64,000 nt of DNA from a virus (Duplodnaviria > Heunggongvirae > Uroviricota > Caudoviricetes), in the IMG/VR virus record IMGVR_UViG_3300025162_000019, positions 10,826 to 74,825 of that record; one strand, given 5' to 3'. Of the stretch, positions 579 through 63,617 are shown one piece after another. Under the pieces are notes generated by a model that did not search any database, was not told the origin of the DNA, and saw nothing but the letters and a program-made list of their open reading frames with translations. The position numbers were made by a program, and so were the translations under genes. The number at the start of each line of letters is the position of its first letter. The first letter of the stretch is position 1.

Positions 579-1921
579 ATGGAGGTGTTGTCAAAGGTCA
601 TTGTGGAAAGTGGCATTCGTGACATTCGTATGTTAGCAAAAACATACAATGAAGCTGAAATTTACTTCCACATTGACCTTTGACGATGCTTGATGGCGTC
701 ACTTCAGCTATAGCAATGAAAGAATATATCGCCAGGTATGGTATTAAAACTGTGGCCGCACATAAAATACAATATGGTGATACAGAATACGCTGTTTCTA
801 AGCCTGGGCCTCATACTTTAGCAATTTTAGTTGATTATGCACACGGTAAGCCTATTATGAAAATACATACAGACCACCATGATGCGCAAGTAGGTGTTGA
901 AAAGGGAACATCAACATCATTTATTAAAATACCTTCTAATGTAGAATACCTGTCATCAGTTATACCTAATACTGACATATTCCCACAAGAAGATTTGAAA
1001 CTTATATCTATGGTTGACTCTGCTGACTTTTCTAAAAATGGCATAGAGCCTGATGATGTTATGAGAGCCGCTTTCGGTTTGAATGATGAAATAGATGTAG
1101 CTAGAAATAGAATGATGATGGGACTTGTGGTAAATAAACTATTGTTATCCTACAAAAATAAACCAGATTTCTTAGTTAAACTAGTCCTAATGTCTAAACC
1201 ATCATTAGTAAATATGTATATAAACATTAAAAAGTTAGCTAAAGAAAATGGTTACGCCCCACCTGAAGCAATTATGGCAAATCAGGCAAACTATGTAGCA
1301 GCACAGAAAGTAAGTAAGAATGTAAAAATGGTTGGAAGTACTATTGTTCAATATGGTGGTGGTTCAATGATAAAGCCCGGCAGTTACGATAGATATACAC
1401 CATTTAAGAACAACCCTGAAGCTAGGTATTTAAGTATGGCTTGGCCTGTTGGTCTTGTTCAGTTGGCCAAAAATCCATTTGCAGGTTATGACAATCCTTA
1501 CAACTTAGGTGAAATAGCAATGGATGTATTAGAAAAATATAAATCTAAACTGATGAAAAAAATTTCTTTACTACAAGCTAAGAGAATATTTGAATCTGGT
1601 ATTAAAGAACTTGGCGACCAAATGGGCTTTACTTACAAAGATTTGATGGCTTTATTTACAGACAAGGTTAAACTATCTACTAAGCAAGAACAATGGCTTA
1701 TGAAAGTAATGGATAAAAAGTTTTTAGAACTAGACGAAAAAGAAAAAGATTTTATGTATAGCTTAAAGATTACTGTATGGGATATAATAAAAGCACAATC
1801 GGGTGGTCATCATGATATAACGAATGTAAGTGGGTGGAATTTTTATGGCAAGGGCTATGTTGATTTAATGAAAGAATTTCAAAATGATCTGGTAAATACA
1901 TTAGCAGAAAAGGAGAAGTAG
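579..1921 (+). CDS. DHH-family phosphoesterase-like protein, interrupted by an 11-nt insert (681-691)
   Basis: Frame from ATG579 reads ...AEIYFHIDL then TGA; downstream frame reads LDGVTSAIAM...TDHH...SGGH; joining gives motif I FHIDLDG. Confidence 0.75.
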
Positions 1922-1923
1922 TC

Positions 1924-3018
1924 ATTATACCTAAATATCCAAAAACTATAGAATTAAATAATGAAAATATAAAATTATATAATATTTATACAACAGATGG
2001 TATATATTATCTAAAACCTAAAAGAAAGTATGATTGGTTTATATGTAAGACTTGTAATAAAGAATTTATTAGATATAAAGGAGAGCATTTAGAATATTGT
2101 TCTAATAAATGTTTTAATCCAACTATCATAGAAAGTCAAAAATTAAATATAGATGATATTAAAAAATCCTTTGAAATTGAGGGATATACACTACTAACAA
2201 CAGAATATAAAAGTAATTTACAAAAATTAGATTTTATTTGTCCTAATGGTCATAAACATAATATAACATGGAGTAATTGGTCAAATGTAAATCATAAACA
2301 AAGATGCGGAAAATGTGCAAAAAACGCACCTATATCATTTTTAGATGTTACAGAATATTTTAATCGTTTTAATTATAAAGTTATTTCCACAGAAAATGAG
2401 TATAAAGGTGCATATACTTCTAAAATAAAATATATATGCCCTAAAGGTCATAAACATGAAACTACATATACATTTTTTAAAAGAGGAAACCGATGCCCAT
2501 ATTGTTCAAATCAGATACAGATAAAATTTGATGATATTAAAAATGAAATGACTAAAGAGGGATATAAAGTTTTAACTAAAGAAAAAGATTATAAAACGCA
2601 AAATACAACTAAAATAGATTTTATCTGCCCAAACGGTCATAAACATAATATATCAGTAAGAAAATGGCGTAATTATGGTAGATGTGGTAAATGTAGGGTA
2701 TCAAAAGAAGAGCAAGAAATAAGAAATTTGTTAAACACTCACAATATTAAATATAAAATGAATGATAGAAATACTATATTAAACCCATTTACAAATCATT
2801 ATTTAGAATTAGATTTCTTATTTCCTAAACTAAATAAAGCTATAGAATATAATGGTTCTTATTGGCATTCATTAGATGAAAAAATTGCAATAGATAAATT
2901 AAAAAGTAGGTTATGTGAAGAGAAAAATATAGATTTAATGGTTATAACTGATATTGATTGGTATGAAAATAGAGTTAAATGTATAGATGATATATTAATA
3001 TTTGTAAAGGAGAAATAA
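1924..3018 (+). CDS. Zn-ribbon-repeat protein with DUF559/Vsr-like endonuclease C-terminus; non-ATG start
   Basis: Frame of the 2548 ORF is open back to ~1912 with no in-frame ATG/GTG/TTG between there and 2548; AGGAG at 1911-1915 precedes ATT1924/ATA1927; three CPxGH..RCxxC repeats; [15 protein letters not shown]. Confidence 0.7.
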   Translation: MIPKYPKTIELNNENIKLYNIYTTDGIYYLKPKRKYDWFICKTCNKEFIRYKGEHLEYCSNKCFNPTIIESQKLNIDDIKKSFEIEGYTLLTTEYKSNLQKLDFICPNGHKHNITWSNWSNVNHKQRCGKCAKNAPISFLDVTEYFNRFNYKVISTENEYKGAYTSKIKYICPKGHKHETTYTFFKRGNRCPYCSNQIQIKFDDIKNEMTKEGYKVLTKEKDYKTQNTTKIDFICPNGHKHNISVRKWRNYGRCGKCRVSKEEQEIRNLLNTHNIKYKMNDRNTILNPFTNHYLELDFLFPKLNKAIEYNGSYWHSLDEKIAIDKLKSRLCEEKNIDLMVITDIDWYENRVKCIDDILIFVKEK

Positions 3019-3020
3019 CA

Positions 3021-62066: not shown

Positions 62067-62138
62067 ATGGGAAAGTTATTTTTTACATCGGATTTACATT
62101 TAAATCAATACATTTACTTTTTTCTACTTCTTATATAA
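62067..62138 (+). pseudogene. Stranded 5' stub of the metallophosphoesterase (MGKLFFTSDLHLN...)
   Basis: 13 codons matching the N-terminus at 63052, then unrelated sequence and stop. Confidence 0.7.
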
Positions 62139-62173
62139 ATAATAGTATATAAAGTTTTAATGGAGAATATACT

Positions 62174-63052
62174 ATGAAATGTAAACAATGTAATAACGAT
62201 ATACCTGAAAAAAGAACATATTGTAGTGTAAAATGTAAAAGTGATTATCAAAGAGGAAAAACATTAGAAGAGATAGTAGGAACTGATAAAGCATTTTTAA
62301 CAAAAGAAAAACTATCAAAATCCTGTAGTGGTAGTAAAAATGGTAACTTTGGTAATAAATGGACAGATGAACAAAAAGAAATCCAAAGTATAAGAGCAAA
62401 ACAAGTTTATATAGATAAGCCAGAACTGCTAGTTATAGTTGGTAATAGTAATAGAGGAATAAAATGGGATGATGAAAGGAGAAATGATTTCTCTAATCAA
62501 ACTAAAGGACATAAAGGCATCATACATACAGAAGAAGCAAAAGAAAAAATAGGTATAACATCAAAAGAAAGAGCTAATAACCCTGAGTATAAAAAGAAAA
62601 TAAGAAAATCAATGGAACTTAATGGTCATTGGATACCTTTAGAAAATAAAACTGATTATGAGATATATTTTAAGAATGCCGATTGGATAGAAAAAATGTT
62701 TGATTTTATAACTGATGAAAAGCAGTTATATAAACTTAAAACATTAAAGGTATTCAACTGCAAAACTAATACAAAAGGTATAGTTCGTGATCATATGTTA
62801 TCACGGAGAACAGGATTTGAACAAAATATACCATATCAGCTTTTAAGGCATCCTTGTAACTGTCAAATACTTACACACTCTGAAAATATAAAAAAGAAAA
62901 ATGGTAGATATACAGATAAAGACAATCAAACAATAAATGAACTAATAAAAAAGATTGAAACATATGAAAAGGATTGGATGGAACAAGAAATGTGCTTAGA
63001 AATAATCAAAAACTATGAGAGGGATAATCAATGTATCTGTGGTGATATATAA
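62174..63052 (+). CDS. Putative homing endonuclease (Zn motif, NUMOD3-like, HNH-like C-terminus)
   Basis: CKQC..YCS..C; HTEE; RDHMLS..HPCNCQIL...N. Confidence 0.6.
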   Translation: MKCKQCNNDIPEKRTYCSVKCKSDYQRGKTLEEIVGTDKAFLTKEKLSKSCSGSKNGNFGNKWTDEQKEIQSIRAKQVYIDKPELLVIVGNSNRGIKWDDERRNDFSNQTKGHKGIIHTEEAKEKIGITSKERANNPEYKKKIRKSMELNGHWIPLENKTDYEIYFKNADWIEKMFDFITDEKQLYKLKTLKVFNCKTNTKGIVRDHMLSRRTGFEQNIPYQLLRHPCNCQILTHSENIKKKNGRYTDKDNQTINELIKKIETYEKDWMEQEMCLEIIKNYERDNQCICGDI

Positions 63053-63617
63053 TGGGAAAACTATATTTCACCGCAGATACCTGAAAACTCATTTAAATCA
63101 CAGCAATATTATTGGTTATTGCAACAGACCGTTCAAAGATGTTGATCATATGAATAATAGTCTTGTGAAAAACTGGAATGAAAGAGTGAAACCAGATGAT
63201 ACTATTATTGTTGATGGTGATTTTTGCTTTAAGAATACTCCTGGCGGCAAGGTCGGAGAAGGTGGTCTGGAAGCCGCAAAATACTGGATTGCACAACTTA
63301 ATGGTGAAAAGATTTTTGTCAGAGGAAACCATGATAAACACAATAGCCTGAAAACTGCTATTACTGGTATGGAAATCGTGTTTGGTGGATATAAGATGTG
63401 GGTTGTTCATAATCCCAATCATTATAATCCAGACTATGAAATAAACATTGTGGGTCATGTACACGATTTTTGGAAGATTCAGTATGCACCTATTACAAAT
63501 ATTTATAAGCCAAGAACTATTTTAGTGAATGTTGGTGTTGATGTATGGGACTTCAAACCTGTTCCTGCAAACAAGATTATAGATTTGATTTTTAAGTTTA
63601 AAAGAGAAAATATTTAA
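63052..63617 (+). CDS. Calcineurin-like metallophosphoesterase, interrupted by an 8-nt insert (63082-63089)
   Basis: ATG63052 reads MGKLYFTADT then TGA; next frame THLNHSNIIGYCNRPF..GD..GNHD..H..GHVH; joining gives FTADTH (DxH). Confidence 0.85.

Follow-up and report, generated by a model that had tools for sequence, protein, structure and literature searches.

Stop-led coding gaps beside homing-endonuclease genes in an uncultured lake phage: candidate sites of short ribosome hopping

Three interrupted enzyme genes and their endonuclease neighbors

In a 64,000-nucleotide stretch of phage DNA (positions 10,826 to 74,825 of the IMG/VR virus record IMGVR_UViG_3300025162_000019, Caudoviricetes; hereafter the window), three enzyme genes are interrupted by short coding gaps, each of which begins with a stop codon and ends directly before a catalytic codon (Table 1). 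The genes encode a DHH-like phosphoesterase (site 1), a family B DNA polymerase (PolB, site 2) and a metallophosphoesterase (site 3). We refer to the last sense codon before the stop as the take-off codon and to the last codon of the gap as the landing codon. The source record is the 189,489-base genome of an uncultured phage from lake metagenomes, with a GC content of ~30% and a completeness of 83%, and a megablast search of 20 kb against named phage records returned zero matches.

Table 1. Features of the three interrupted genes, with positions in the window
Feature	Position	Strand	Remarks
Site 1
Homing-endonuclease-like gene 1	1..571	+	HNH type, CapR-like and zinc-finger parts; PHROG endonuclease/HNH, phrog_23051
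DHH-like phosphoesterase, 5' coding part	579..680	+	ATG 579; 34 codons ending FHIDL; take-off CTT 678-680
Long composite hairpin	583..691	+	-51.9 kcal/mol, z -7.7; spans 5' part, take-off codon, stop and gap
11-base coding gap	681..691	+	TGA, CGATG, landing CTT 689-691; then GAT GGC GTC
DHH-like phosphoesterase, 3' coding part	692..1921	+	Begins at catalytic Asp codon (DGVTSA...); DHH motif further on
Site 2
PolB C-terminal fragment	6248..7087	-	Begins at DTDS; Pfam DNA_pol_B; 52% identity to L015
8-base coding gap	7088..7095	-	TGA, AG, landing ATA 7090-7088; then GAT ACT GAT TCA
14-bp hairpin	7095..7138	-	3' arm ends at take-off codon plus first U of stop; z -3.9 (-4.5 in control comparison)
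PolB leader open reading frame, 26 codons	7096..7173	-	ATG 7173, AAAGGA before it; ends SVLYI; take-off ATT 7098-7096
Homing-endonuclease gene 2, VSR-like, splits PolB	7195..8265	-	CapR repeats, DUF4379 zinc finger, REase_MTES_1575; PHROG homing/HNH endonuclease, E 6e-68
PolB N-terminal fragment, 519 aa	8265..9824	-	Pfam DNA_pol_B_exo1, DNA_pol_B; aligns to L015 PolB residues 142-617
Site 3
Homing-endonuclease-like gene 3	62174..63052	+	NUMOD3, phrog_23051
13+5 bp hairpin	63033..63080	+	Encloses start codon; 3' arm ends inside take-off codon; z -6.0 (-6.2 in control comparison)
Metallophosphoesterase, 5' coding part	63052..63081	+	MGKLYFTADT; ATG overlaps endonuclease stop; take-off ACC 63079-81
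8-base coding gap	63082..63089	+	TGA, AA, landing ACT 63087-89; then CAT TTA AAT CAC
Metallophosphoesterase, 3' coding part	63090..63617	+	Begins at catalytic His codon; PHROG phosphoesterase, E 4.7e-33; Pfam Metallophos weak

An earlier reading made from the letters of the window (the sequence-only reading) had described these three breaks, and they are present as it gave them. It had also stated that excision of the inserts restores the catalytic motifs exactly, which agrees with our comparison: removal of the gaps (11, 8 and 8 bases) yields FHxDLDG, YxDTDS and DxH as in uninterrupted relatives, which align codon for codon at all three positions. The strings that contain the gaps (678-694 on the plus strand, 7098-7085 on the minus strand and 63079-63092 on the plus strand) are each unique.

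At site 1, the 5' part of the DHH-like gene aligns to the N-termini of uninterrupted relatives (...ESGIRN...AEIYFHxDL) and the 3' part shares 38-60% identity with them. The continuous sequence ...AEIYFHxDLDGVTSA... was identified in 21 loci from metagenomes, 11 from IMG/VR and two records of huge phages, and the 11 bases of the gap are missing from 32 gap-free relatives. The Pfam DHH match of the intact relatives is weak (E 1.9e-5, below the family cut-off); the window's own pieces gave no match in the Pfam search, and a PDB sequence search for the DHH-like protein returned nothing useful. At site 2, an intact PolB from a relative (L015) aligns to the N-terminal fragment of the window and then to the leader and C-terminal fragment across ...VAYGDTDS..., which indicates that the window gene is split by the endonuclease gene at 7195-8265 and that 8 bases interrupt it a second time, immediately ahead of DTDS. 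The gene is an endonuclease-split one, in which each piece is homologous to part of the intact protein; among the three sites this applies to PolB alone. Searches of the record with the Pfam PolB, PolA and DnaE models found no other DNA polymerase. At site 3, 26 relatives read M..YFTSDxHxxH uninterrupted and lack the gap.

All three gaps lie just downstream of homing-endonuclease genes, one of them VSR-like and the other two related to each other and HNH/NUMOD3-like, with phrog_23051 common to both. The full open reading frame (ORF) of endonuclease gene 1 covers genome positions 10653-11396 and begins 172 bases ahead of the window. Because only ~20 of the ~285 ORFs of the genome are endonuclease-like, finding one beside each of three gaps by chance is unlikely. 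The sequence-only reading overlooked these neighbors and took the inserts to be one dispersed sequence family; we found three separate cassettes instead, each attached to its own endonuclease gene. In each cassette, a free-standing endonuclease gene is followed by the opening 10-34 codons of the target, folded into a strong hairpin, and by a stop-led gap before the catalytic Asp or His codon; each site is the 3' end of a cassette. The VSR-like gene 2 has ~17 paralogs across the 189-kb genome. Logan contigs contain many alternative joints between such VSR-like copies (e.g., 5364-6251 and 7195-8265, with CapR, zinc-finger and REase_MTES_1575 parts).

Independent assemblies carry two of the gaps. 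Logan contigs from run X1 (depth ~27) cover 1-5410 and 6020-7253 of the window, and those from run X2, which belongs to another study (depth 17-18), cover 1-1955 and 6615-7253; both sets are free of insertions and deletions and include gaps 1 and 2. In the independent run X6 (3-5x), none of the pieces listed bridges site 1 or site 2. Run X9 contains a relative of ~88% identity, whose contig stops at 7081, just short of site 2. A second X9 contig aligns from 737 onward only, hinting at a cassette boundary. Among the runs listed as holding the stretches searched, none was an RNA run.

Genome-wide scans for a stop, a frame switch and a stem recovered sites 2 and 3 and no further convincing case; site 1, where the long hairpin has an internal mismatch, fell below the no-mismatch stem filter of one scan. 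A plain codon-pattern scan of the whole genome was drowned in ordinary gene junctions. None of the 18 phage tRNAs reads TGA as a suppressor. Reassignment of TGA was rejected, since TGA terminates 42 of the 285 genes in a rough set compiled greedily from ORFs. The 18 tRNA genes are clustered at 36316-45654 of the window and include a tRNA-Leu(UAG) that could read CUU and CUN landing codons. The cluster also holds a tRNA-Ile with anticodon UAU (45564-45654, ARAGORN), unusually long at 91 bases, which may be relevant to the take-off and landing pair ATT/ATA of site 2.

Gap alleles and hairpins in related phages

Relatives with comparable gaps were identified for all three enzymes. For the DHH-like gene, a metagenome scan found CTT TGA CTT, an in-frame gap of 6 bases (L178), and CTT TGA cg CTA, a gap of 8 bases in a locus where an endonuclease-1 homolog lies directly upstream and overlaps the start of the DHH gene (L182). 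A pattern scan that left the take-off codon, the stop type and the gap free added 13 distinct alleles, all with CTT TGA, with CTT, CTG or CTA as landing codon and with gaps of 6, 8 or 11 bases, which brings the total to 16 (the window and 15 others). The codons TTA and TTG are frequent for the same Leu in gap-free alleles and occur as landing codon in none of the gap alleles; re-pairing of one CUN-reading tRNA fits this better than selection for the amino acid alone. About half of the 13 further alleles have an endonuclease-1 homolog upstream, and loci in which such a homolog lies directly before a gap-bearing DHH gene include L182, L202, L208, L214, L225 and L226. Among the 37 DHH loci of the first searches, the homolog was present upstream only in L182, which is itself gap-bearing. 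In L178 (20-45), L202, L211, L214, L221, L226 and others, the DxD motif contains an in-frame CTT TGA CTT or CTG that a strong hairpin precedes, and such alleles are candidate natural in-frame stop-hops. One gap-free allele (L177, 1205-1312; FHEDLDG) still has a fairly strong hairpin (z -3.4) and may be a former gap allele.

A protein search revealed ~80 PolB C-terminal fragments of 284-294 amino acids that start a few residues before DTDS. The PolB loci of IMG/VR fall into three classes: intact genes, genes cleanly split with their own ATG ~10 codons before DTDS, and split genes with leader, hairpin, stop and short gap. The last class comprises at least 12 lineages, with leaders of 18-26 codons and gaps of 2, 7, 8, 10 or 11 bases (Table 2), and the gap is absent from both other classes. 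Take-off and landing codons are identical or from the same codon box in 4 of 12 lineages and share two of three bases in 6 more. Depending on the lineage, the gene between the N-terminal fragment and the leader is VSR-like, GIY-YIG or absent. In another PolB relative (L076/L017, IMGVR_UViG_3300032053_000177), an intein-like insert ending ...ILLHN lies right before TDS of motif C, so that an intein also uses this spot.

Table 2. Gaps in PolB genes of the window and its relatives
Lineage	Take-off codon and stop	Rest of gap	Gap length (bases)
Window	ATT TGA	ag ATA	8
L064	ATT TGA	cg ATT	8
L111	ATA TGA	a ATA	7
L112	ATA TAG	ATA overlaps take-off codon at +2	2
L051, L135	ATT TGA	4 bases, then GTT	10
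L125	ATT TGA	5 bases, then GTT	11
L057	ATT TGA	4 bases, then CTT	10
L169	CTT TGA	gg ATT	8
L046, L048	TCT TGA	5 bases, then TTT	11
L050	TCC TGA	a TTT	7
L170	GGT TGA	a GAC	7

For the metallophosphoesterase, a scan with a free pattern at the D-x/H position yielded 17 different alleles whose gaps measure 5, 6, 8, 9 or 11 bases. They include ACC TGA ct (in which the landing ACT overlaps the stop), ATC TAG ...ATC, ACG TAG ...ACG, CTA TAG CTC and TCA TGA TCG. Landing and take-off codons belong to the same codon box in 15 of the 17 alleles, the differences lying at the third base. Both loci with an endonuclease-3 homolog carry a gapped phosphoesterase gene, versus none of the 28 loci that lack the homolog. 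In one further relative (L021, 2465-2510), a single extra base separates WFTADTHF from GHSNIIKY and represents either a +1 site or a sequencing error.

The only close endonuclease-3 homolog (49% identity) was found in L194 (IMGVR_UViG_3300031951_000022), directly before a phosphoesterase gene 33% identical to that of the window. This gene is broken three codons further on (2748-2810) by a gap of 22 bases, GGT TAG CC-TTCG-GG CTA ATCAA GGT, which contains a CC-UUCG-GG stem-loop and matches the gene 60-type take-off site in the topoisomerase gene of Salmonella phage S16 without a difference across 22 bases. Gly as take-off, UAG and the CC-UUCG-GG tip are conserved in MobA-type bypass (10.1101/2022.08.31.505936), and all are present in this gap. 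On this sequence match, the locus would be a gene 60-like cassette outside topoisomerase and beside a different endonuclease.

In every gap allele, in the window and in relatives, a stop codon directly follows the take-off codon. A rule that the stop is always TGA is true of the window and of all DHH alleles; one PolB allele has TAG, and the phosphoesterase alleles use TAA, TAG and TGA. Similarly, the proposed insert consensus TGA(A/C)(A/G)A(C/T) describes the three window sites only and is not shared by the gaps of relatives. Gap lengths across relatives range from 2 to 11 bases and include all three frame classes, in-frame gaps among them, so that no single frameshift direction explains them. 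The take-off and landing codons of the window could be read by one tRNA at site 1 (CTT/CTT) and at site 3 (ACC/ACT); among relatives, the same is true of all DHH alleles and of 15 of the 17 phosphoesterase alleles, and of PolB only in part.

Strong hairpins accompany the gaps. The three window hairpins have z-scores from -3.9 to -7.7 (minimum-free-energy folding). In control comparisons, the mean z-score at the PolB position is -0.16 for 30 intact and +0.33 for 17 cleanly split gap-free alleles, against -4.8 for eight gap-bearing alleles and -4.5 for the window. Gap-free DHH alleles average -0.14 (23 alleles), against -5.1 for the window, -7.2 for L182 and -6 to -9 for 12 of the 13 other gap alleles; the corresponding values for the phosphoesterase are +0.09 (23 gap-free alleles), -6.2 (window) and -3.5 to -8.4 for nearly all other gap alleles. 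The PolB stem covaries: among 13 sequences, double changes occur in 9 of 15 pairs, one of which involves the first base of the take-off codon. Of the cells, 92.8% are paired, versus 32-56% with the partners slid, and the observed score was reached in 0 of 500 shuffles. The DHH stem has conserved codons on both arms and few double changes. An upstream stem whose 3' arm ends at the take-off codon, as described by the sequence-only reading, is found at sites 2 and 3; at site 1, the 3' arm continues beyond the take-off codon across the stop and the rest of the gap. Many diverged phages share the gaps with their hairpins and stops, which occur only in combination.

Probable short ribosome hops and alternative explanations

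Taken together, these observations make it quite probable that the endonuclease-linked sites are mini bypass cassettes whose gaps are hopped over by ribosomes. The sequence-only reading had proposed translational bypass, signaled by a stop, a 5' stem and a landing codon that matches the take-off codon, and with the relatives compared this is the interpretation that the sequences support best. The ribosome would arrive at the take-off codon with the stop in its A site, the peptidyl-tRNA would release, the mRNA would slide by 8 or 11 bases, and the same tRNA would re-pair with the landing codon, so that decoding restarts at the catalytic codon to give FHIDLDG, YIDTDS and ADTH. Because the 3' arm of the hairpin reaches the P-site codon, the hairpin would be melted inside the ribosome, and its re-forming as the mRNA leaves the ribosome probably drives the slide, by about the gap length. 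Re-formation of mRNA structure is proposed as the driver of gene 60 bypass in a preprint (10.1101/2024.12.09.627546). By analogy with MobA and gene 60, the gap probably breaks the endonuclease's own recognition site in conserved motif DNA and leaves the protein unchanged; this role is likelier than a gating of enzyme activity, for which we found no support.

Several points weigh against hopping. Stop-hops have an efficiency of ~1% in Escherichia coli reporters, and a sole replicative polymerase would need far more than this; with a record that is 83% complete, a second polymerase is possible. The contig comparison covered sites 1 and 2, whose gaps are present in X1 and X2; each of these runs is marked as a potential source of the record, so that an independent assembler recovers the gaps from sampling that is not fully independent. 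Several PolB lineages show near-matches only (ATT to GTT or CTT, TCT to TTT, GGT to GAC), and under standard wobble no single tRNA reads both codons of the window pair ATT/ATA; the phage does encode a tRNA-Ile(UAU). The short stop-hops seen in E. coli reporters come from adventitious, synthetic or overexpressed constructs (PMC5009743). Finally, a start codon lies near or overlaps the stop in many gaps (TTGA in PolB, TGAcgATG in DHH), where restart would be possible.

Termination and restart, in which the leader is released as a small peptide, the ribosome restarts nearby and the enzyme works as non-covalent pieces, like the products of other phage genes split by endonucleases, is the strongest alternative, and we consider it unlikely. 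PolB is already split in this clade, the 17 cleanly split alleles have their own ATG ~10 codons before DTDS, TTG overlaps TGA in the PolB of the window and of several relatives, and an ATG lies inside the DHH gap, all of which would suit such a restart. Some alleles, however, offer no usable start: L112 has none in frame, the in-frame CTT TGA CTT/CTG alleles have none, and the window phosphoesterase has only a CTG. In addition, DYVxYx and DTDS stay joined in the cleanly split PolB genes, where this strand is not separated from the motif. Assembly of a peptide of only 10 residues, with a metal-binding Asp, onto the remainder of its enzyme is unlikely, and restart leaves the matched codons and the hairpin specific to gap alleles unexplained. 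The gap might instead be cut from the mRNA by an unknown nuclease/ligase or skipped through hairpin-guided realignment of the polymerase, as the ending of the hairpin at the gap in all three families could suggest. We know of no system that takes out 2-11 bases, and removal at the RNA level needs neither a stop as first gap codon nor third-base-tolerant matching, both of which are near-universal here; since the L194 gap furthermore copies a proven ribosomal bypass signal, this explanation appears very improbable. The constant position of the stop as first gap codon, the third-base-tolerant matching, the occurrence of all frame classes and the gene 60-type signal in the same cassette family together favor an event on the ribosome over one of RNA processing or DNA repair.

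Frameshifting or readthrough that keeps the gap codons has in its favor that all three window gaps are 3n+2 bases long, which a -1 shift would turn into 2-4 extra residues within the motif, and that CTT TGA C is also the prfB shift site. It would require enzymes that tolerate such residues, and extra residues between the catalytic Asp residues occur in no uninterrupted relative. No slippery X XXY YYZ heptamer is present (the codons one base back are CCT, CAT and TAC), and the +1 frame of site 1 closes after three codons, on which grounds -1 slippage and a prfB-like +1 shift were rejected; with the gaps of relatives in all three frame classes, we see hardly any likelihood for this mechanism. 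Dead genes, endonuclease repair scars or assembly errors might be expected in a genome with ~20 endonuclease genes, whose gaps sit in likely cleavage targets. The design is nevertheless kept over lineages of 40-60% identity, with both flanking frames intact and hairpins covarying, PolB is the sole polymerase found, and gaps 1 and 2 are present in contigs of 17-28x depth assembled from two studies, which makes decay or error the least credible of these explanations.

Returning to ribosome hopping, we regard a broader form of it as fairly probable: several endonuclease families may carry a general, undescribed class of minimal bypass sites, consisting of a stop-led gap of 2-11 bases with matched landing, driven mainly by a hairpin that folds again behind the ribosome and planted in catalytic-motif codons of many phage enzymes. 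The phage of the window would then depend on three of them, one in the only DNA polymerase found, and the CTT TGA CTT/CTG sites of the DHH genes would be the first natural in-frame stop-hops.

Relation to known bypass systems

The cassettes resemble T4 gene 60 and MobA in several respects. An endonuclease gene lies directly upstream, and the target is split or given a new 5' part, which overlaps the endonuclease ORF in L182. The gap interrupts a conserved catalytic region some dozens of codons after the start of the downstream ORF, a stop follows the take-off codon, and a 5' stem-loop is present. The landing codon matches, with third-base wobble allowed, in the DHH alleles and most phosphoesterase alleles and only partly in PolB. 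In some relatives, the endonuclease has been lost and the gap kept, and different endonuclease families occur at one site. Among MobA elements, loss or replacement of the endonuclease has likewise been seen, and the MobA bypass insert blocks self-cleavage (10.1101/2022.08.31.505936).

Differences from gene 60 are also evident. Gaps in the window are 8 and 11 bases long (2-11 in relatives), versus 50 bases in gene 60 and 20 in one of its clades. They are too short for the take-off stem-loop 3' of the take-off codon (the CC-UUCG-GG tip), which is present only in the relative L194, and by direct reading they share nothing with the S16 cassette, being also too short for a similarity search. The upstream hairpin is the dominant signal here, and the hosts are PolB, a DHH-like esterase and a metallophosphoesterase rather than topoisomerase. 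With leaders of 10-34 codons, a nascent-peptide signal is not evident. Moreover, the window gaps have no mini Shine-Dalgarno (GAG, GGA, AGG) 5-7 bases before the landing codon; GGAG is found inside the gap in some PolB relatives.

The mitochondria of Magnusiomyces capitatus are similar in having many short bypassed inserts (byps) in one genome, with take-off and landing pairs that are sometimes imperfect. Byps are 27-55 nucleotides long and GC-rich, whereas the elements described here are shorter, stop-led, tied to endonucleases and, under the hopping reading, hairpin-dependent. At byps, the A-site codon is a sense codon that is not otherwise used, and mRNA context seems to play no part (PMC5009743). 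The stop-hops of E. coli likewise consist of a short peptidyl-tRNA hop over a stop to a matching codon, and the DHH alleles CTT TGA CTT/CTG have exactly that form; unlike the E. coli cases, the present sites are conserved, are each accompanied by a hairpin of their own and interrupt genes whose function is required. According to a 2016 review, no natural in-frame stop-hop was known, and shorter counterparts of bypassing had long been expected (PMC5009743).

Site 1 and nearly all DHH gap alleles also recall prfB (RF2) in their CUU UGA C/G, with Leu tRNA on CUU in the P site and a weak UGA in the A site; they differ in that the +1 frame is closed, no Shine-Dalgarno is present at the prfB spacing and the frame is restored only by 6, 8 or 11 bases. 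As for genes in pieces, the window PolB is cut by an endonuclease gene, in many relatives at the same place, as is nrdA by MobE in phage Aeh1. The split gp43 of T4-related phages is another gene in pieces. Such genes need subunit assembly only, whereas the PolB C-terminal fragment has an additional gap before DTDS. Short-distance bypass in phage genes has also been proposed for a UUA-codon candidate in Streptomyces phages (PMC10732093). That candidate has a rare sense codon as trigger and a proposed regulatory role, and the accessible part of the report does not mention an endonuclease link or a position in a catalytic motif.

In our literature search, gene 60-type cassettes were described only in topoisomerase genes, and no published description of a mini bypass class was found. 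Programmed bypassing is known from very few natural cases, namely T4 gene 60 with its topoisomerase relatives and the yeast mitochondrial byps. If ribosomes do hop these gaps, selfish endonuclease cassettes would commonly use bypassing to disrupt the DNA they target while sparing the protein, and the natural diversity of gap lengths, stops, codon pairs and hairpins would provide a ready mutational series for sliding driven by mRNA refolding.

The gaps also affect annotation. Gene callers begin the PolB C-terminal fragment at a TTG and the phosphoesterase at an out-of-frame ATG: the frame downstream of the phosphoesterase gap is open back to the ATG at 63015, and the resulting 200-amino-acid ORF (63015-63617) has a wrong N-terminus and hides the break. 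Because gene callers mis-start or split such genes, essential phage enzymes are mis-annotated. Elsewhere in the window, a 476-amino-acid ORF (3021-4451) encodes a RimK-like ATP-grasp domain fused to a putative ATP-dependent zinc protease domain.

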